A stretch of DNA of 62,582 bases from the NCBI RefSeq assembly GCF_002159175.1, contig NZ_NFGZ01000016.1, positions 1 through 62,582 of the forward strand. Reading direction: 5' to 3'. This document shows positions 18,131-60,827 of the stretch, piece after piece; the first letter of the stretch is position 1, and each line of letters begins with the position of its first letter. The DNA is from Flavonifractor sp. An92. GTDB taxonomy: Bacteria > Bacillota > Clostridia > Oscillospirales > Oscillospiraceae. The translations under genes were made by a program, and so were the position numbers. The notes below the pieces were generated by a model. The model did no database searches. It had not been told where the DNA came from and worked only from the letters and a program-made list of their open reading frames with translations.

Positions 18131-18208
18131 GTCTTGTCCGTAAACTATAGATGCCACGGTTCAGTTACCTTTTAATATTCATGTTCCATACAGTGAGGAT
18201 GAACTTCA

Positions 18209-18580
18209 TTAATAATAAAATGGTCTAACATCCCGAAAAATATTTTGTAACTGATTTGCTACACCATCAAATACTACTTTTTTTTGTGGCCTTTTCTTGG
18301 GCTGTTTGACCTTCTCTTCAGCAATTACTCCCGCAAAAAAGCCAAGAACAATAATACATTTATGAGGAGTGCAAAGAAATCTTCTTATAATCTGTCTATC
18401 CTCTCTATCTCCGCTAAGAAGACCACAAATTATACAGAGAACTGTAAATCCTGGAATATAAACTACATATTTTTTTGCTTTACACAACTGAGGCGTTTCT
18501 ACGCACAAAGAATAAATACCAATTACTGTACCAATATAAACAGATGCTATTATCCCAAGTATAACTATTATCCAACTCAC
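18209..18580 (-). CDS. Hypothetical small membrane protein (3 predicted TM helices) in the AT-rich islet
   Basis: Low-GC ORF (about 33% GC) with hydrophobic helices; no recognisable family. Confidence 0.45.
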   Translation of the reverse strand: MSWIIVILGIIASVYIGTVIGIYSLCVETPQLCKAKKYVVYIPGFTVLCIICGLLSGDREDRQIIRRFLCTPHKCIIVLGFFAGVIAEEKVKQPKKRPQKKVVFDGVANQLQNIFRDVRPFYY

Positions 18581-19053
18581 TGCTTTACCTCCCGACCATT
18601 AACAACAGCGGCTTTAATTCTTGCAGACTGTTTGCATGGAGAACACGTATAATACGCGACCGGAATCAGAAGATTTACAATAAGAAGTATTGCAATTAGG
18701 ACTTTTGAGATTTTAAACCCGCCAAATAACATCATTGATTCAACAATAAAATAACTGTTTGAGTCTTGAGTTACTATTCCTCCAAGTCCCAAAAAACAGA
18801 TAATCATTATTATGACATCAACTGATCCGATTACCCAACGGACTATGCGAGCAACTTTATTAGTAGGACCAGAACACACAATATCAATCAATACTGGAGC
18901 AATAAAAAGCATTGTCTGGAAATATGTAAAATTTTGCGGGTTGCTGAGCAACACGAATATTCCTACAATGACATAGATGCCCTGCCAAATAAACCGATAA
19001 TTATTATCTGGCAACTGGCACGCATCATACGAGCACTTAGCCAAAGCAAACAC
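18577..19053 (-). CDS. Hypothetical small membrane protein (4 predicted TM helices) in the AT-rich islet
   Basis: Low-GC ORF overlapping the downstream gene by 4 nt (ATGA coupling). Probable GTG start with an AG-rich RBS. Confidence 0.45.
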   Translation of the reverse strand: MFALAKCSYDACQLPDNNYRFIWQGIYVIVGIFVLLSNPQNFTYFQTMLFIAPVLIDIVCSGPTNKVARIVRWVIGSVDVIIMIICFLGLGGIVTQDSNSYFIVESMMLFGGFKISKVLIAILLIVNLLIPVAYYTCSPCKQSARIKAAVVNGREVKQ

Positions 19054-20701: not shown

Positions 20702-20776
20702 TGGAGGCGCCACCCAGAATCGAACTGGGGAATAAAGCTTTTGCAGAGCTCTGCCTTACCGCTTGGCTATGGCGCC
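20702..20776 (-). tRNA. tRNA-Cys (GCA)
   Basis: Cloverleaf GGCGCCATAGCCAAGCGGTAAGGCAGAGCTCTGCAAAAGC...TCCA; anticodon loop cTGCAaa; encoded CCA end. Confidence 0.9.
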
Positions 20777-20813
20777 ATATGGAGGACGGGAAGCCATCCC
20801 ATCCTCATTTGTT

Positions 20814-20889
20814 TGGAGCAGGTGACGAGGCTCGAACTCGCTACCTCCACCTTGGCAAGGTGGCGCTCTACCAGATGAGCTACACCTGC
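20814..20889 (-). tRNA. tRNA-Gly (GCC)
   Basis: GCAGGTGTAGCTCATCTGGTAGAGCGCCACCTTGCCAAGGTGG...GCTCCA; anticodon GCC. Confidence 0.9.
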
Positions 20890-20946
20890 ATACGCAGTAC
20901 CCACTTGGGGCCCCGGTGAGATACCCACGGTATCTCACCGGGAATT

Positions 20947-21022
20947 TGGTGCCTCCGGCCGGAATCGAACCAGCGACACGGGGATTTTCAGTCCCCTGCT
21001 CTACCAACTGAGCTACAGAGGC
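20947..21022 (-). tRNA. tRNA-Phe (GAA)
   Basis: GCCTCTGTAGCTCAGTTGGTAGAGCAGGGGACTGAAAATCCCC...GCACCA; anticodon GAA. Confidence 0.9.
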
Positions 21023-21025
21023 ATA

Positions 21026-21102
<77 letters not shown>

Positions 21103-21110
21103 ATATGATA

Positions 21111-21186
21111 TGGTGGGAACAACAGGGCTCGAACCTGTGACATCATGCTTGTAAGGCATGCGCTCTCCCAGCTGAGCTATGCTCCC
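21111..21186 (-). tRNA. tRNA-Val (TAC)
   Basis: GGGAGCATAGCTCAGCTGGGAGAGCGCATGCCTTACAAGCATG...CCACCA; anticodon UAC. Confidence 0.9.
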
Positions 21187-55615: not shown

Positions 55616-57509
55616 GAAACCCAACCAGCCTGGCACCGCCGGCGTGCTGGGCCGCCTGATCCGGATGCTCTTCCAGTTCTATCCCGTGATGATGCCGGTA
55701 GTTGTGGTGTGCATCATCTTCAATGCCGTGGTCAGCTCCCTCCCCTCCATCTTTATGCAGAACGTCATCGCCGCCGTGGAAGTGAGCTGGCAGAGCGGCG
55801 ACTGGGCCGCGGTGTCCGGTCAGATCACCGAGCTGGTGCTGCTGCTGGCCGTCTTTTACATCCTGAGCCTCATCGCCTGCTTCACCTTCAACCAGATGAT
55901 GGCCATCATCACCCAGGGCTCCCTGGCCAAGCTCCGTGAAAAGATGTTCAACGGCATGCAGGACCTGCCCATCCGCTACTTTGACACCCACAATCACGGC
56001 GACGTGATGAGCTACTACACCAACGACATCGACACCCTCCGCCAGATGGTGTCCCAGAGCTTTCCCCAGCTGCTCCTGTCCACTGTGATGGTGCTGACCG
56101 TGTTCGGCATCATGGTCTATTACAGCCTCTGGCTCACCCTGGTGGTGATGCTGGGCGTGGTGCTCATGACCCTGGTGGTGCGCAAGGTGGGCGGCGGCTC
56201 CGCCAAGTACTTCATCCGCCAGCAGCAGGCCCTGGCCCGCACCGAGGGCTACATCGAAGAGATGATGAACGGCCAGAAGGTCATCAAGGTCTTCTGCCAC
56301 GAGGAGGCCTCCAAGGAGGGCTTTGACGCCATCAATGACGCCCTCTTCTCCGACGCTGAGAAGGCCAACCGCTACGCCAACATGCTCATGCCCATCCTCA
56401 TGAACATCGGCAACGTCCTCTATGTAGTGGTGGCCCTGGTGAGCGGCGTGCTCCTCATCAGCGGCGCCCCCAATGTCAGCATCTCCGGCATGGCCTTCAG
56501 CATCAGCATCGCCGTGCCCTTCCTCAACATGACCAAGCAGTTCGCCAGCAACATCGGCCAGGTGTCCAACCAGCTCAACGCGGTCATCATGGGTCTGGCC
56601 GGTACCCGGCGCATCTTCGCCCTCATCGACGAGCAGGCCGAGGAGGACGAGGGCTATGTCACTCTGGTCAACGTGAAGGAGACGGCCGACGGCTCCCTGG
56701 AGGAGTGCGAGCAGGTCACCAACATGTGGGCCTGGAAGCAGCCCGGTGAAAACGGCGGCTTCACCTACACCCGCCTCACCGGCGATGTGCGGCTGAAGGA
56801 CGTGGACTTCGGCTATGTGCCCGAAAAGACCGTCCTCCACGACGTGTCCCTCTACGCCAAGCCCGGCCAGAAGGTGGCCTTCGTGGGCTCCACCGGCGCG
56901 GGCAAGACCACCATCACCAACCTCATCAACCGCTTCTATGACATCCAGAGCGGCACCATCCTCTACGACGGCATCGACATCCGCAACATCCGCAAGGCCG
57001 ACCTCCGCCGCAGTCTGGGCGTGGTGCTCCAGGACACCAACCTCTTCACCGGCACCGTCATGGACAACATCCGCTACGGCCGTCTGGACGCCTGCGATGA
57101 GGAGTGCATCGCCGCAGCCCAGTTGGCCGGCGCCCACGACTTCATCACCCGCCTGCCCCAGGGCTATGACACCCCCCTCTCGGGCAACGGCGCCAGCCTC
57201 TCCCAGGGCCAGCGGCAGCTGCTGGCCATTGCCCGTGCGGCGGTGGCCGATCCCCCGGTGATGATCCTGGACGAGGCCACCTCCTCCATCGACACCCGCA
57301 CCGAGGCCATCGTGCAGCGGGGCATGGACGCGCTGATGACCGGACGCACCGTGTTCGTCATCGCCCACCGCCTCTCCACGGTCAAGAACTCCGACGCCAT
57401 CATGGTGCTGGACCACGGCCGCATCATCGAGCGGGGCAGCCACGACGAGCTGCTGGCCCTCAAGGGCACCTACTACCAGCTCTACACCGGCGCTCTGGAA
57501 CTGGACTAA
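55602..57509 (+). CDS. ABC transporter permease/ATP-binding protein (exporter half-transporter 2)
   Basis: TM domain plus NBD with Walker A GSTGAGKTT, signature LSQGQRQL and Walker B MILDEATS. Overlaps the upstream partner by 14 nt. Confidence 0.9.
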   Translation: MSRNKKPNQPGTAGVLGRLIRMLFQFYPVMMPVVVVCIIFNAVVSSLPSIFMQNVIAAVEVSWQSGDWAAVSGQITELVLLLAVFYILSLIACFTFNQMMAIITQGSLAKLREKMFNGMQDLPIRYFDTHNHGDVMSYYTNDIDTLRQMVSQSFPQLLLSTVMVLTVFGIMVYYSLWLTLVVMLGVVLMTLVVRKVGGGSAKYFIRQQQALARTEGYIEEMMNGQKVIKVFCHEEASKEGFDAINDALFSDAEKANRYANMLMPILMNIGNVLYVVVALVSGVLLISGAPNVSISGMAFSISIAVPFLNMTKQFASNIGQVSNQLNAVIMGLAGTRRIFALIDEQAEEDEGYVTLVNVKETADGSLEECEQVTNMWAWKQPGENGGFTYTRLTGDVRLKDVDFGYVPEKTVLHDVSLYAKPGQKVAFVGSTGAGKTTITNLINRFYDIQSGTILYDGIDIRNIRKADLRRSLGVVLQDTNLFTGTVMDNIRYGRLDACDEECIAAAQLAGAHDFITRLPQGYDTPLSGNGASLSQGQRQLLAIARAAVADPPVMILDEATSSIDTRTEAIVQRGMDALMTGRTVFVIAHRLSTVKNSDAIMVLDHGRIIERGSHDELLALKGTYYQLYTGALELD

Positions 57510-57517
57510 GTTCCTCC

Positions 57518-57551
57518 TCCCTCCGGCCTTCGGGCCGGGGGGAGATTTTTT
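57518..57551 (+). terminator. Terminator of the ABC-exporter operon
   Basis: ccctccggcc-ttcg-ggccgggggg followed by agattttttt. Confidence 0.6.
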
Positions 57552-57562
57552 TGCCCAGGCTC

Positions 57563-57591
57563 TTGACTTTATCAGCAAAAAGTGCTAAAGT
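57563..57591 (+). promoter_or_regulatory. Sigma-A promoter (TTGACT-17-TAAAGT) of the tyrosine-biosynthesis operon leader
   Basis: TTGACTttatcagcaaaaagtgcTAAAGT, 32 nt upstream of the leader-peptide RBS. Confidence 0.5.
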
Positions 57592-57622
57592 GCAGATAAC
57601 GATTTCCCCAGGAGGTACGGCT

Positions 57623-57697
57623 ATGATCCGTCGGTTCGGCTATGCGTATGAGAGCTACCGCTACTATTATGGCAGCGGTCTGTTTTCATGCCCATAA
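57623..57697 (+). CDS. Tyr-rich leader peptide (24 aa: MIRRFGYAYESYRYYYGSGLFSCP) of a probable transcription attenuator
   Basis: AGGAGG RBS 7 nt upstream; 6 Tyr (including YYY) and 2 Phe in 24 codons; followed 50 nt later by a strong intrinsic terminator, immediately upstream of the DAHP synthase. Confidence 0.5.
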   Translation: MIRRFGYAYESYRYYYGSGLFSCP

Positions 57698-57747
57698 CCG
57701 GCCTGTCACATCGGACGGAGCACACCTTCCAAGGGTGGAAGCACACC

Positions 57748-57790
57748 GCCGCGGCAGCCCAGATGGGCCGCCGCGGCTTTTGTTTTTCTT
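57748..57790 (+). terminator. Attenuator terminator (13-bp GC stem plus UUUUGUUUUUCUU) between leader peptide and DAHP synthase
   Basis: gccgcggcagccc-agat-gggccgccgcggc, then ttttgtttttctt. An alternative upstream hairpin, cttcca-aggg-tggaag (57727-57742), is available for competing folding. Confidence 0.55.
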
Positions 57791-57809
57791 GAGAAAGGAT
57801 GAGAACGCT

Positions 57810-58829
57810 ATGGTCGTCATTATGAAACCCCACTTCACCCCCGAACAGCTCCAGGAGGCCATCCAGGCCATGAAGGCCGGGGGCGTTCAGGTCAACATCT
57901 CCCGCGGCACCGAGACCACCGTCCTGGGCGCCGAGGGCAACGCCGCCCAGATCGACCAGGAGCTGCTGGAGCAGCTGCCCGGCGTGGAGAAGGTCATGCG
58001 GGTCACCGAGCCCTACAAGAAGGCCAACCGCAAGTACCACCCCGATGACACGGTGCTCCCCCTGTGCAACGGCCGCACCATCGGCGGCAAGCGCCTGGCG
58101 GTCATCGCCGGGCCCTGCTCGGTGGAGAGTGAAAGTCAGATCACTCAGGTGGCCCAGGCGGTCCAGGAGAGCGGCGCCGCCGCCCTGCGGGGCGGGGCCT
58201 TCAAGCCCCGCACCTCCCCCTACGCCTTCCAGGGCCTGGAGTGCGAGGGCCTCAACCTCCTCCAGAAGGCCAAGGAGGCCACGGGCCTGCCCATCGTCAC
58301 CGAGATCATGGGCACCGAGTACATTGAGCTCTTCGAAGAGTGCGTGGACGTGATCCAGGTGGGGGCCCGGAACATGCAGAACTTCGACCTCCTCAAAAAG
58401 CTGGGCAAGCGCACCACCAAGCCCATCCTCCTCAAGCGGGGGCTCTCCTCCACCATCGAGGAGTGGCTCATGTCCGCCGAGTACATCATGGCCGGCGGCA
58501 ACCCCAACGTCATCCTCTGCGAGCGGGGCATCCGCACCTTCGAGACCTACACCCGCAACACCCTGGACCTGTCGGCAGTGCTGGCGGTGAAGCAGCTCTC
58601 CCACCTGCCGGTGGTGGTGGACCCCTCCCACGCCTGCGGCAAGGCCTGGATGGTGGAGCGCATGTCCATGGCGGCGGTGGCCGCCGGGGCCGACGGCCTC
58701 ATCATCGAGGTCCACAACGACCCGAAAAACGCCCTGTGCGACGGCGCCCAGTCCCTGACGCCGGAGCAGTTCCAGTCCCTCATGTCCGCTCTGGACCCGG
58801 TGGCCCGCTGTGTGGGCCGGGAGGTGTGA
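57810..58829 (+). CDS. aroF: 3-deoxy-7-phosphoheptulonate (DAHP) synthase, type I-beta with N-terminal ferredoxin-like regulatory domain
   Basis: N-terminal about 80-aa ACT/FL-like domain, then the KDO8PS/DAHPS TIM-barrel core (..LAVIAGPCSVES..; ..KPRTSPY.F.G..; ..VVVDPSHA.G..). Confidence 0.9.
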   Translation: MVVIMKPHFTPEQLQEAIQAMKAGGVQVNISRGTETTVLGAEGNAAQIDQELLEQLPGVEKVMRVTEPYKKANRKYHPDDTVLPLCNGRTIGGKRLAVIAGPCSVESESQITQVAQAVQESGAAALRGGAFKPRTSPYAFQGLECEGLNLLQKAKEATGLPIVTEIMGTEYIELFEECVDVIQVGARNMQNFDLLKKLGKRTTKPILLKRGLSSTIEEWLMSAEYIMAGGNPNVILCERGIRTFETYTRNTLDLSAVLAVKQLSHLPVVVDPSHACGKAWMVERMSMAAVAAGADGLIIEVHNDPKNALCDGAQSLTPEQFQSLMSALDPVARCVGREV

Positions 58830-58889
58830 GCGGGTCCAACTGCGTATGGAGCACACAAACTGACAAACAATGCATCGGAGGGGTGACAT

Positions 58890-59894
58890 ATGAAACCGAA
58901 GCAAATCAAAGGGAATGCCCGAATCGGCGTATTTTCCGCCTCGTCTCCTGTTTCCGCAACCGTTCCGATCCGCTATGAACGGGGCGTTCAATATCTGGAA
59001 TCCAAGGGGTTTCAGGTCATAAACGGGTCGCTCTACGGAAAACAAGAGGCGTATCGTTCCGGAACGATACGGGAACGGGCAGACGAATTCAATCAGCTTT
59101 TGTATCGTGAGGATGTTCCAATCTTAATGGCGGCCATCGGCGGCAATAATACAAACTCGATCCTGCCATATATCGACTATGACTATTTGAAACAGCACCC
59201 GAAAATCATCATCGGGTACTCGGATACAACGGCACTCCTGCTTGCTGTTTATGCAAAAACAGGACTGGTCACATTTTATGGACCGGCCGTCGCATCTTCG
59301 TTTGGGGAACTGCCTCCCTTTGTGGACTGGACGTTTGAGTCCTTCCATCGGATGATGAGAGGCACTCTTTCGCTGCCATATTCTTATGAAATGCCAGCAG
59401 TTTGGACCGACGAGTTTCTCAATTGGAGCGAACAGGATCGATCAAAAAAGCCAAATGAAAACGACTGGATCTGCGTCTCACCCGGTCTTTGCCGTGGACG
59501 GCTCATCGGCGGCAACCTGAACACAATGGAAGGTTTTTTTGGAACGGAGTATATGCCGCAAATCCAGTCCGGGGATATTCTGCTGCTTGAAGATTCCCTG
59601 AAAGATGCCTGTACGGTGGAGCGCTCCTTTTCCCTGTTAAAACTTGCCGGTGTTTTTGAGCGGGCCGGCGGCATTATCTTGGGAAAACACGAGAAGTTTG
59701 ATGACAACGGAACTGGAAAAGCGCCTTATGAAATTCTCCTGGAAGTGTTAGGAGATACCAAGCTTCCTATTTTGGCCGATTTTGATTGCTGCCACACCCA
59801 TCCTATGCTGACCGTTCCCATCGGCGTAAATGTGACGCTTGATGCCGGAAACAAAAAAGTCGTGTTGATGGAATCACCATTTGCAAATGACTAA
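58890..59894 (+). CDS. LD-carboxypeptidase, S66 family (LdcA/MccF-like)
   Basis: S66 pattern (..ARIGVFSASSP..; ..IMAAIGGNNTNS..; Ser-nucleophile region GYSDTTALL). The gene is about 48% GC in a 60-65% GC neighbourhood and has its own GGAGGGG RBS. Confidence 0.85.
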   Translation: MKPKQIKGNARIGVFSASSPVSATVPIRYERGVQYLESKGFQVINGSLYGKQEAYRSGTIRERADEFNQLLYREDVPILMAAIGGNNTNSILPYIDYDYLKQHPKIIIGYSDTTALLLAVYAKTGLVTFYGPAVASSFGELPPFVDWTFESFHRMMRGTLSLPYSYEMPAVWTDEFLNWSEQDRSKKPNENDWICVSPGLCRGRLIGGNLNTMEGFFGTEYMPQIQSGDILLLEDSLKDACTVERSFSLLKLAGVFERAGGIILGKHEKFDDNGTGKAPYEILLEVLGDTKLPILADFDCCHTHPMLTVPIGVNVTLDAGNKKVVLMESPFAND

Positions 59895-59924
59895 TACCTT
59901 TCCGCTTCTCAGGAGGTTATTGCT

Positions 59925-60785
59925 ATGAAAAAACATCTGGTTATCGTGGGTCTGGGCCTCATTGGCGGCTCCATGGCCCTGGCCTTGAAGGGCTTTGAGG
60001 ACTTTGAAATCGTGGGCGTGGACGTGTCCCAGCCCACCCTGCGCTTCGCCTCCGAGCACGGCGTGGCCGACTTCGTCACCGAGGACGCCGCCTCCGTCCT
60101 CCCCGGGGCCGATGTGGTGATGCTGGCCCTCCACCCCCGGGGCATCGTGGACTTTCTGGCCCGGTACCGGGGCCAGTTCCAGCCCGGGTGTCTGGTCACC
60201 GACGTGTGCGGCGTCAAGACTTCCATCCTGGAGGCGGCGGAGGTACTCCCCGACACGGTGGACTTCATCGGCTGCCACCCCATGGCGGGCACCGAGTTCT
60301 CCGGCATCGAGCACGCCTTTGCCGAGATGTTTCAGGGGAGCCACCTGATCCTGGTCCCCCAGGAGACCAGCACGGCGGAGCACATCGCCCTGATGGAGCG
60401 CCTGGCCGCCCACATCGGCTGCCGGGACGTGTACCGCACCACGGCGGAGGAGCACGACGCCATGATCGCCTACACCAGCCAGCTCATGCATGTGATCGCC
60501 GTCAGCGTCTGCGACGACCCCATGCTCTTCACCTGCCGGGGATTCGAGGGCTCCTCCTTCCGGGGCTGCACCCGGGTGGCCGCTCTGGACGTGGGGCTGT
60601 GGACCGAGCTCTTCTCCATGAACCGTCCCGCCCTGGTGGAGTCGGTGGACCGGCTTTTGGAGTCCCTCACCGCCTACCGGGAGGTGCTGGCCGGCGGCGA
60701 CGCCGCCCAGCTCAGCCAGAAGCTCTCCCGCTCGGCCGCCCGGAAGCGGCAGATGGACCTGCCCGGCCCCGATCTGCTGGCATAA
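59925..60785 (+). CDS. tyrA: Prephenate dehydrogenase
   Basis: NAD-binding motif VIVGLGLIGGS and the TyrA core (..IGCHPMAGTE..). Confidence 0.9.
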   Translation: MKKHLVIVGLGLIGGSMALALKGFEDFEIVGVDVSQPTLRFASEHGVADFVTEDAASVLPGADVVMLALHPRGIVDFLARYRGQFQPGCLVTDVCGVKTSILEAAEVLPDTVDFIGCHPMAGTEFSGIEHAFAEMFQGSHLILVPQETSTAEHIALMERLAAHIGCRDVYRTTAEEHDAMIAYTSQLMHVIAVSVCDDPMLFTCRGFEGSSFRGCTRVAALDVGLWTELFSMNRPALVESVDRLLESLTAYREVLAGGDAAQLSQKLSRSAARKRQMDLPGPDLLA

Positions 60786-60827
60786 GAAAACGCCGCCGGA
60801 GTTTTCATCACTCCGGCGGCGTATCGC

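Follow-up and report, generated by a model that had tools for sequence, protein, structure and literature searches.

A conserved Tyr-rich leader ORF and intrinsic terminator upstream of the DAHP synthase-tyrA operon of Flavonifractor sp. An92: a probable divergent variant of known aromatic amino acid attenuators

In Firmicutes, aromatic genes are usually controlled by T-box leaders (RF00230) that respond to Tyr, Phe or Trp. Leader-peptide attenuators, such as trpL, pheL/pheA, pheST, hisL and leuL, are known from Proteobacteria (Yanofsky 1981). From Firmicutes, Stav et al. (2019, BMC Microbiol 19:66, PMC6429828) catalogued aromatic leader-peptide attenuators located 5′ of aroF/tyrA, namely uORF-13, with 336 examples, and uORF-12, with 1258. 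The uORF-13 RNA, named the 'aromatic amino acid attenuator' and found from Clostridium novyi, lies mostly 5′ of aroF and, second, tyrA, carries aromatic codons with an F-Y-F consensus in the loop of its hairpin P1, and was proposed to act like the trp attenuator (PMC6429828). A further family, uORFC-13-1, with 24 examples from Acholeplasma and environmental sequences only, is found exclusively 5′ of aroF, and attenuation was proposed for it as well (Brewer et al. 2021, RNA Biol 18:2417, PMC8632094). The supplement of Stav et al. (PMC6429828) also cites aroR, a leader 5′ of the aroF gene of Corynebacterium glutamicum, as distinct in both structure and phylogeny, and Naville & Gautheret (2010) contains nothing on aromatic leaders. 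The original prediction for the locus studied here had described attenuators of this sort as rare in Firmicutes, a view that does not stand, since uORF-13, uORF-12 (PMC6429828) and uORFC-13-1 (PMC8632094) were already published.

We analysed a stretch of 62,582 nucleotides from Flavonifractor sp. An92 (the window), in which the leader region shares with uORF-13 a short ORF with its ribosome-binding site (RBS) 5′ of an intrinsic terminator, a hairpin P1, aroF/tyrA downstream, and a Firmicute host. As shown in Table 1, the TTGACT-17-TAAAGT promoter, the AGGAGG site and the 24-codon ORF with six Tyr (including a YYY run) and two Phe are all present as first described. The promoter has an extended −10 element (TGcTAAAGT, 57583-91) with the TG at 57583-84, and a promoter scan returned 2 promoter-like sites in 1.5 kb compared to 0.1 expected. 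Tyr is encoded at codons 7, 9, 12, 14, 15 and 16 of the leader ORF (57641-43, 57647-49, 57656-58 and 57662-70) and Phe at codons 5 and 21. The chance of at least 6 Tyr in 23 random sense codons of matching base composition is P = 2.7e-6, with the 405 SD-preceded small ORFs in the window as the background. On both strands of the 62.5 kb, no small ORF other than the leader ORF has an SD, is rich in aromatic codons and is followed by a terminator-like site. The terminator stem, GCCGCGGC-A-GCCC / GGGC-C-GCCGCGGC with the loop AGAU (−27 kcal/mol), begins 50 nt past the leader stop codon, and UUUUGUUUUUCUU (57778-57790) follows directly 3′ of it. A 13-bp GC hairpin had been described about 50 nt past the stop; the terminator and the distance hold, but the stem consists of 12 GC-rich pairs plus one mismatch.

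Table 1. Coordinates of the leader features and operon genes, numbered from the first letter of the window
Feature	Position	Strand	Details
Sigma-A-type promoter	57563..57591	+	−35 TTGACT (57563-57568), 17-nt spacer, −10 TAAAGT (57586-57591)
5′ strand of P0 (5′ UTR and SD), possible closing helix	57602..57616	+	nascent-RNA folds
Leader Shine-Dalgarno (SD) AGGAGG	57610..57615	+	7 nt 5′ of leader ATG
Leader ORF	57623..57697	+	24 codons, ATG 57623, TAA 57695-57697; peptide MIRRFGYAYESYRYYYGSGLFSCP
P1, long imperfect hairpin	57633..57703	+	predicted fold; encloses nearly the entire leader ORF
Candidate antiterminator hairpin	57700..57760	+	spacer 57700-57723 with terminator 5′ arm 57746-57760; −22.9 kcal/mol
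Small hairpin H2, CUUCCA-AGGG-UGGAAG	57726..57741	+	sequence and predicted folds
Intrinsic terminator	57748..57790	+	stem 57748-57777, U-tract 57778-57790
DAHP synthase (aroF)	57810..58829	+	Pfam PF18152 and PF00793; NCBIfam NF006421, 495.7 bits
S66 LD-carboxypeptidase	58890..59894	+	between aroF and tyrA
Prephenate dehydrogenase (tyrA)	59925..60785	+	final operon gene; hairpin 60790-60822 3′ of tyrA

The DAHP synthase gene, whose RBS is AAGGA (57795-99), starts one nucleotide upstream of the previously given position 57811. By its Pfam domains the enzyme is of type I-beta with an N-terminal ferredoxin-like regulatory domain and is not of the E. coli AroF type; the earlier term 'Tyr-sensitive-type DAHP synthase' was imprecise. 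Both genes of the proposed DAHP synthase-tyrA operon were found, but the S66 LD-carboxypeptidase gene between them had been overlooked. This gene is a low-GC insertion (GC 0.48-0.50 compared to 0.65-0.70 in the flanks) that was seen in 0 of 160 related loci, where tyrA usually lies directly 3′ of aroF. Neither a promoter nor a terminator was found on the + strand from 58700 to 60785.

We found an aromatic-rich leader ORF with an SD and a terminator directly 5′ of the gene in 86 of 151 related DAHP synthase loci compared to 2 of 320 control windows, counts that overstate significance because the related leader sequences are not independent; the arrangement is not due to chance. The closest relatives of the window are Oscillospiraceae, and we refer to a subtype of 16 distinct Oscillospiraceae leaders as type A. 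In their alignment the mini-ORF, RBS, Tyr codons and terminator are kept 5′ of aroF-tyrA, as the original prediction anticipated. The type A ORF is Tyr-rich, has 22-26 codons (31 in L011) and lies within one long hairpin P1, with the terminator at the equivalent place in all leaders. In type A peptides, Tyr averages 5.8 residues and Phe 1.1, and tyrA lies directly downstream in 15/15; Phe-rich subtypes have tyrA downstream less often or never. Leader amino-acid composition tracks operon content, in agreement with the idea that the codon bias fits the cargo. Altogether at least five leader subtypes (A to E) were distinguished, including type B, a longer Clostridium/Negativicutes subtype with a clear covarying antiterminator. 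Here an AAUGAG box forms pairs with CUCAUU at the terminator apex, and in 24 of 33 leaders it is the best complement.

P1 is predicted in 16/16 type A leaders with z from −2 to −7. In the window, its 5′ arm contains Tyr codons 7-14, its loop Tyr codons 15-16 and its 3′ arm the stop codon, and the apical stem is ACCGCU/AGCGGU, with the counterpart CCGUUAC/GUAACGG in L083. In the alignment, 72% of the cells are paired compared to 29-42% in slid controls, and compensatory changes occur, such as the pair of columns 50-63, which is AU in 9 leaders and GC in 5. An RNA-only switch (a riboswitch, a T-box-like leader or a protein-binding leader), with P1 as the sensor and the ORF incidental, would suit the highly structured P1 (z = −4.7 for the 206-nt leader fold compared to dinucleotide shuffles), and the conservation of peptide residues (R, S-G, C-P) is in large part accounted for by base pairing in P1 and not by amino-acid selection; pairing is retained where P is replaced by A or L. 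However, an SD-like site and ATG or GTG are kept in 16/16 type A leaders and the position of the stop codon is fixed; in 15/16 the two P1 arms are separated by 8, 11 or 14 nt (2 mod 3), so that length changes are multiples of three and indels keep the frame. Aromatic codons are, moreover, enriched in one frame, their type follows operon content, and P1 is a rod only, without a conserved unpaired pocket. An RNA-only switch is also at odds with the Rfam searches, which returned no match at E ≤ 10 in 57000-58300, T-box RF00230 included, and we consider such a switch very unlikely.

The peptide itself could act instead, either as the sensor, through a TnaC-like arrest at Cys-Pro-stop that responds to free tyrosine, or as the product, a functional aromatic micropeptide. 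A Pro-stop end, which is a slow-release context, is present in 13/16 type A peptides, the motif S-x-G-Y-F-x-C recurs from GC-rich to AT-rich taxa, and a ribosome that paused on the stop codon would cover the strand of the candidate antiterminator. Yet the terminal residue shifts with P1 pairing (to Ala in L009 and to Leu in L053), conservation is lacking in the N-terminal half, whose codons vary freely among type A leaders, and the peptides of subtypes A to E are wholly different in length and sequence while their aromatic richness is kept. These observations make it improbable that the nascent peptide is the sensor or the product.

The promoter is conserved as well. The block CTTGACTTT-N-AAAAGTGyTAAAGT is kept in 15 type A relatives, and the −10 element lies 18-34 nt from the leader ATG (25-34 except in L011). 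This block is unusually conserved, is kept even in the leaderless L006, and is self-complementary at 16-18 of 26 positions in most relatives, as would be expected if a repressor acted on the partly palindromic ACTTT...AAAGT and the ORF and terminator were a constitutive partial terminator or insulator. However, most of the dyad falls on the −35 and −10 hexamers, the upstream ABC-transporter gene has its own terminator (57517-57544), and control at the promoter leaves the Tyr codons, the conservation of frame and the correlation between composition and operon unexplained, and thus we give this explanation very little credence. Promoter control and attenuation are not mutually exclusive.

Searches with Rfam over the whole window and 20 related loci gave no family over any leader, and no T-box at the gathering score in the window or in these loci. 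Together with the conserved ORF, RBS, Tyr codons and terminator and the frame-keeping indels, the lack of a T-box match supports the proposal of a Tyr-codon leader-peptide attenuator of the DAHP synthase/tyrA operon. As a proxy for the published uORF-13 family, we built a covariance model (R1) of 33 type B cores, which recovered held-out type B leaders at E ≤ 6e-5. With filters off, R1 did not match the leader at E ≤ 10 when run against the whole window, and reached 10.3 bits (E = 0.32, correct register) on 57560-57810 alone (251 nt). None of the other type A leaders was detected by R1. The only leader reached by the reverse model of type A (R2) was L014, an intermediate (23.6 bits, E = 0.001); it detected no type B leader in the type B loci. 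R1 also gave a weak match (E = 0.5) within an AT-rich stretch, at 18243-18340, which we put down to chance. Since R1 does not detect the window leader, we file it as a divergent, Tyr-specialised variant of the attenuator kind catalogued in 2019, and it opens no new category.

We looked for mutually exclusive structures in the leader. The best antiterminator candidate in the GC-rich type A subtype, judging from the modelled folds, is the hairpin at 57700-57760. The probability that the terminator 5′ arm is paired with the spacer is 0.84 in the window, a value matched by 3% of dinucleotide shuffles, and the corresponding shuffle fraction is ≤0.10 in 9/16 relatives. Masking the 5′ leader and the Tyr codons increased the mean spacer/5′-arm pairing from 0.12 to 0.61, while with a ribosome at the stop codon it stayed at 0.12. 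As long as the terminator 5′ arm has not been transcribed, pairing of these spacer bases with the 5′ leader is predicted (mean 0.73). Upstream, the 5′ strand of the possible helix P0 would have its partner at 57724-57741 (GGAGGU with ACCUUC); in relatives, helices of 12-16 bp are predicted to join the SD/AUG region to the stretch past the stop codon, with a percentile ≤0.1 in 8/16, and this closing helix is weak in the window (percentile 0.54, and 0.45 in the nascent-RNA test). The 5′ arm of H2 is anti-SD-like and complementary to the leader SD, which makes it an alternative partner, and anti-SD hairpins resembling H2 occur in L001, L005, L012, L053, L081, L004 and L002; a role of H2 (CTTCCA/TGGAAG) in alternative folding, as originally suggested, is plausible.

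When the leader was folded at equilibrium with the footprint of a ribosome placed on each relevant codon, the GC-rich terminator persisted in every case, and RNAduplex pairing of the 22 nt around and after the stop with the terminator 5′ arm showed no enrichment over random windows per locus (median percentile 0.59). With a single stalled ribosome on a Tyr codon, the fold predicted from pairing probabilities does not switch, since the terminator arm is then predicted to be taken up by the SD/AUG region. The candidate at 57700-57760 thus has the shuffles and the masking of the 5′ leader plus Tyr codons in its favour, and no support from the equilibrium folds, the duplex test or the masks of a single stalled ribosome.

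Taken together, sequence and comparison establish the leader ORF with its translation signals, P1 and the terminator, as well as how these are conserved and which genes surround them. The leader is very probably a trp/pheA-type, ribosome-mediated transcription attenuator that tunes aroF-(S66 peptidase)-tyrA to the supply of charged tRNA-Tyr; its response to Tyr and the identity of its antiterminator we infer by analogy and from modelling. In such an attenuator, transcription would start about 25 nt 5′ of the 24-codon leader ORF, nearly all of which would lie inside P1. When Tyr is ample, a ribosome would reach the stop codon in the P1 3′ arm, mask the first ~12 nt of the spacer and leave, after which P1 and the closing helix (5′ UTR/SD with spacer) would re-form; the terminator 5′ arm would be free, so that the terminator at 57748-57790 would form and transcription would stop 20 nt before the DAHP synthase gene. 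When Tyr is scarce, ribosomes would stall and queue on the six Tyr codons (7-16) near the start codon and keep P1 and the 5′ leader occupied, and the spacer (57700-57723) would then pair with the terminator 5′ arm (57746-57760), which would let RNA polymerase read through. In C. difficile, premature termination has been reported in the aroF 5′ UTR (Fuchs et al. 2020 preprint).

A more tentative proposal, which we regard as possible though rather unlikely, is that the type A Oscillospiraceae leaders form an uncatalogued tyrosine-specific attenuator class with its own switch design. In that design, with the entire ORF of 22-26 codons inside one rod-like hairpin, the leader SD/start region could act as an anti-antiterminator by pairing with the anti-SD-containing spacer. 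The signal could be ribosome occupancy of the start region (stalling and queuing), with the Tyr codons located only 18-45 nt from the AUG, and not a 1:2 hairpin melted by a single ribosome; slow release at Cys-Pro-stop may contribute.

The window leader is confirmed, as far as comparative sequence evidence goes, to be real and conserved, and of the type I-beta DAHP synthase loci sampled, more than half have such a leader. In Clostridia, control of aromatic amino-acid synthesis by leader-peptide attenuation is thus common rather than exceptional. For the annotation of gut Oscillospiraceae, the leader supplies a regulatory feature 5′ of aroF-tyrA that is outside the coverage of Rfam 15. The compact Tyr-only leader, a short ORF in a single hairpin with SD sequestration, also offers a convenient natural model for how stalling is coupled to a terminator.

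Compared to known systems, the leader shares with T-boxes the logic of tRNA charging and the terminator/antiterminator read-out, but the window has no T-box match, and sensing would use the translating ribosome instead of direct tRNA binding. Like the proteobacterial attenuators, it has clustered cognate codons in a leader ORF, an intrinsic terminator before the first structural gene, nested alternative hairpins, and a stop codon that adjoins the would-be antiterminator strand. In contrast to them, it shows no sequence relation, has its entire ORF in one rod-like hairpin and an SD of its own that is complementary to a downstream anti-SD, and has no 2:3 antiterminator that is evident by inspection. 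With aroR it shares a small, aromatic-rich leader peptide attenuator before a DAHP synthase gene in a Gram-positive host, although aroR is actinobacterial. By description, uORFC-13-1 likewise has a uORF with promoter and RBS directly 5′ of a terminator before aroF, but its codons are for Phe and those of the window for Tyr. The collected Clostridium/Negativicutes type B leaders fit the description of uORF-13, from which the window leader is set apart on the basis of that description and of the type B proxy model. Its ORF is half as long (24 compared to about 45 codons), GC-rich and Tyr-dominated, its stop codon is inside P1, and the window lacks the AAUGAG box, which in type B (the published uORF-13 type) is the pairing partner of the terminator apex. 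The P1 loop and apical part hold UAC UAU UAU (codons 14-16), Y-Y-Y instead of F-Y-F, and these codons match the frame and position of GGC UUU UAU UUU AGC in type B.

All the elements that the original prediction listed upstream of the DAHP synthase gene (aroF) were found in the sequence: promoter, AGGAGG, Tyr-rich ORF, small hairpin, terminator and DAHP synthase start. The terminator hairpin, described there as 13 bp, is present but has 12 pairs plus one mismatch. A consensus scan of 1.5 kb gave two promoter-like sites where 0.1 were expected, and the leader folds far more stably than its shuffles (z = -4.7). A terminator of its own (57517-57544) follows the ABC-transporter gene that lies upstream and ends at 57509, so the leader is part of a separate transcription unit. 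The probability of at least six Tyr among 23 random sense codons of the same base composition is 2.7e-6 (background, 405 small ORFs with an SD in front of them in the window), and no second small ORF that is rich in aromatic codons, has an SD and is followed by a terminator was found on either strand of the whole 62.5 kb; these two results exclude a chance origin of the ORF. The DAHP synthase frame is open 5′-ward through the leader (57642-57809) as far as an ATG at 57642, so mechanical ORF callers would give a 395-aa protein that masks the leader.

Features of the aroF-tyrA leader and operon in the window
Feature	Position	Strand	Remarks
Promoter	TTGACT 57563-57568; TAAAGT 57586-57591	+	17-nt spacer; TG upstream of -10; consensus scan
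Leader ribosome-binding site	57610-57615	+	AGGAGG; sequence
Leader ORF	ATG 57623 to TAA 57697	+	encodes MIRRFGYAYESYRYYYGSGLFSCP; six Tyr, two Phe
Small hairpin	57726-57741	+	between leader ORF and terminator
Terminator stem	57748-57777	+	about -27 kcal/mol; then UUUUGUUUUUCUU
DAHP synthase, type I-beta	from 57810	+	N-terminal ferredoxin-like regulatory domain; PF18152 and PF00793; NF006421, 495.7 bits
S66 LD-carboxypeptidase	58890-59894	+	between aroF and tyrA
Prephenate dehydrogenase (tyrA)	59925-60785	+	strong hairpin after gene

Relatives were sampled as 80 genomic and 80 metagenomic loci (handles beginning with L) with DAHP synthase identity of 56-81%. In 151 of them the upstream sequence reaches 150 nt or more, and directly 5′ of the gene 86 of these 151 have a small aromatic-rich ORF that has an SD and is followed by a terminator; as a control, 2 of 320 random windows from the same loci had such a unit. 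The Tyr mini-ORF and terminator are kept in 16 distinct type A leaders, namely that of the window and 15 others from Intestinimonas, Flavonifractor, Pseudoflavonifractor, Papillibacter and Oscillospiraceae MAGs, with ORFs of 22-26 codons (31 in the divergent L011) and the pattern ..GYxYGYYR(Y/C)Y..SG..(A/S)CP-stop. Type B leaders (Clostridium, Clostridioides difficile, Negativicutes) have 40-55 codons with FYSFFYFMFWGFYFSAGYFFCKK, and there are three smaller subtypes, C to E. Their aromatic peptides, also upstream of DAHP synthase genes, look unrelated: MQNLFAANFYYYYYFFTRKK in type C (L054, L060, L072, L079, L143, L144, L157), ..GWTRFTGFGYFAMEK.. in type D (L040, L044, L050, L076) and MLSVLFPFTFPAFFAG... 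in type E (L035, L102 and others). About 1.3-1.4 kb separate the type B leader from the DAHP synthase gene 3′ of it in L034 (leader at 1601-1693) and in L111, L112 and L115 (about 1100-1193), so the first gene of these operons is a different one.

The amino-acid makeup of the leaders follows the cargo genes. Type A leaders average 5.8 Tyr, 1.1 Phe and 0.2 Trp, and tyrA is directly downstream in 15/15, which bears out the proposed fit between codon bias and cargo; type B leaders average 5.3 Tyr, 7.2 Phe and 0.9 Trp with tyrA downstream in 20/39, and the Phe-rich types D and E have it in 0/5. In type A, conservation extends to the SD, the start codon (ATG/GTG) and the position of the stop, and the N-terminal codons are free to vary. 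The distance from an invariant CCGCU to AGCGG is 8, 11 or 14 nt in 15 of the 16 leaders, so indels keep the reading frame. A sensor made of RNA only is disfavoured by these frame-preserving indels, by the conserved translation signals and by the tie between leader composition and operon content.

Nearly the whole type A ORF is held in a single long hairpin, P1 (57633-57703 in the window), with the Tyr codons in its 5′ arm and loop and the stop codon in its 3′ arm. Folding predicted P1 for each of the 16 leaders (z between -2 and -7), and for the window's P1 72% of cells were paired in a MAFFT alignment compared to 29-42% with slid partners. Compensatory pairs occur at the base of the apical stem (AU in nine, GC in five), and L083 carries the variant CCGUUAC/GUAACGG. 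Since the ORF lies inside P1, several conserved residues (Arg, Ser-Gly, Cys-Pro) are fixed by pairing and not by peptide function; residues shift with a changed pairing partner to Ala in L009 and Leu in L053. A peptide acting as the sensor or product is also disfavoured: the Pro-stop in 13/16 leaders could aid slow release, but the residue changes track RNA pairing and the subtypes share no peptide similarity.

Type B leaders share a conserved box, AAUGAG, some 105-121 nt from the start of the ORF and inside or just after it (L013, L019, L024, L025, L041, L055, L122 and others), which is the best complement of the terminator 5′ arm and loop in 24/33 leaders (percentile <= 0.03). The terminator apex CUCAUU is set in otherwise unrelated stems, and box and apex covary (UAAUGAG-CUCAUUA in Clostridium, CAUGAG-CUCAUG in Megasphaera-like leaders). 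Judged from sequence, this pair is a clear antiterminator. Codons 2-5 also pair just 5′ of the box, e.g., AAAGGAAU with AUUCCUUU in C. difficile, and in type C a box AAUUUGUGC directly after the stop codon pairs with the terminator arm and loop GCACGAAUU.

No antiterminator as simple as that of type B was found in type A, and complementarity of the post-stop window to the terminator arm was no higher than in random GC-rich windows. The terminator also survives in all equilibrium folds. Other results are positive but modest: the whole spacer after the stop codon (57700-57723) is predicted to pair with the terminator 5′ arm above dinucleotide shuffles (0.84 in the window, equalled by 3% of shuffles; at <= 10% of shuffles in 9/16 type A leaders), giving a candidate antiterminator hairpin at 57700-57760 (predicted -22.9 kcal/mol). 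As long as the 5′ arm has yet to be made, the predicted partners of the spacer bases are the 5′ UTR, SD and first codons (mean 0.73), and relatives have helices of 12-16 bp between the SD/AUG and post-stop regions that are far longer than the window's and differ in sequence. In the window, the leader SD GGAGGU (57611-57616) pairs with ACCUUC (57724-57729; anti-SD-like CCUUCC) in the 5′ arm of the small hairpin, and this pairing may limit leader translation or serve as an anti-antiterminator. In the model, spacer/arm pairing rose from 0.12 to 0.61 when the 5′ leader was masked together with the Tyr codons (a stalled and a queued ribosome); with a ribosome at the stop codon it was still 0.12, and one ribosome alone on a Tyr codon was insufficient to switch the fold. 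Stalled and queued ribosomes would cover the 5′ leader and Tyr codons and free the spacer to pair with the terminator 5′ arm. Taken together, the reading as a Tyr leader-peptide attenuator was correct in that the element is real, conserved and regulatory; ribosome-mediated attenuation is very probably its mode of action, and for the three-way switch in its details, which serves as a working model, we put the odds at about even.

Repression at the promoter, in addition to attenuation, is possible. The block CTTGACTTT-N8-9-AAAAGTGyTAAAGT (57560-57591) is common to type A relatives, around 230-260 nt 5′ of the DAHP synthase start (L001, L004, L005, L006, L012 and others). It is partly palindromic (ACTTTAACA/TGTTAAAGT in L004, ACTTTAACG/CGTTAAAGT in L006), and L006 has the block and lacks the leader ORF. 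A repressor might use the block as an operator that overlaps the promoter, but such repression leaves the leader unexplained. Downstream, no + strand promoter or terminator was found between the DAHP synthase, S66 LD-carboxypeptidase and tyrA genes. The peptidase gene has a GC of 0.48-0.50 compared to 0.65-0.70 in its flanks and occurs in 0/160 related loci, where tyrA usually comes right after aroF (gap of about 7-90 nt in type A relatives). It seems to have entered the aroF-tyrA operon by a recent horizontal insertion and to be now under the tyrosine leader.

Stav et al. 2019 (PMC6429828) describe a "uORF-13 RNA, aromatic amino acid attenuator" with C. novyi as its starting point, 336 unique examples (43% in Firmicutes), and aroF downstream in about half and tyrA as the next commonest neighbour; they also give 1258 examples of uORF-12. 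Brewer et al. 2021 (PMC8632094) report uORFC-13-1, 5′ of aroF in Acholeplasma. These descriptions, both bioinformatic, contradict the earlier view that peptide attenuators are on record for only a few Firmicute operons. Scanning the leader and 20 related loci against Rfam 15 gave no match for these published attenuators. Premature termination in the aroF 5′ UTR was reported for C. difficile 630 (Fuchs et al., bioRxiv 10.1101/2020.08.10.244764), and the C. difficile aroF leader is type B in our set (L015, L024). A covariance model from 33 type B cores (R1) recovered held-out type B leaders (L070, L034, L111, L112, L115; E <= 6e-5), none of types A, C, D and E, and nothing at the window's leader at E <= 10; when it was limited to 251 nt, its alignment to 57647-57697 had the expected register (AGC...GCU loop AGC...UGC) but scored only 10.3 bits. 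Elsewhere in the window, a weak match at 18243-18340 (E = 0.5), probably due to chance, lies in an AT-rich stretch (GC about 0.37 compared to about 62% for the genome) near a five-tRNA-gene cluster on the minus strand (18150-18600 and 20705-21186). The reverse model (R2, from type A leaders including P1) reached the intermediate L014 (E = 0.001) and no type B leader. The type B set fits the published uORF-13 description; its passages covered here do not mention the AAUGAG antiterminator. The window's leader shares architecture and context with uORF-13, sequence-level membership not being demonstrable with the proxy models R1 and R2, and we file it as a divergent, Tyr-specialised variant of an already described kind of attenuator, which it extends by a divergent subtype that is Tyr-only and by some leads on the mechanism.
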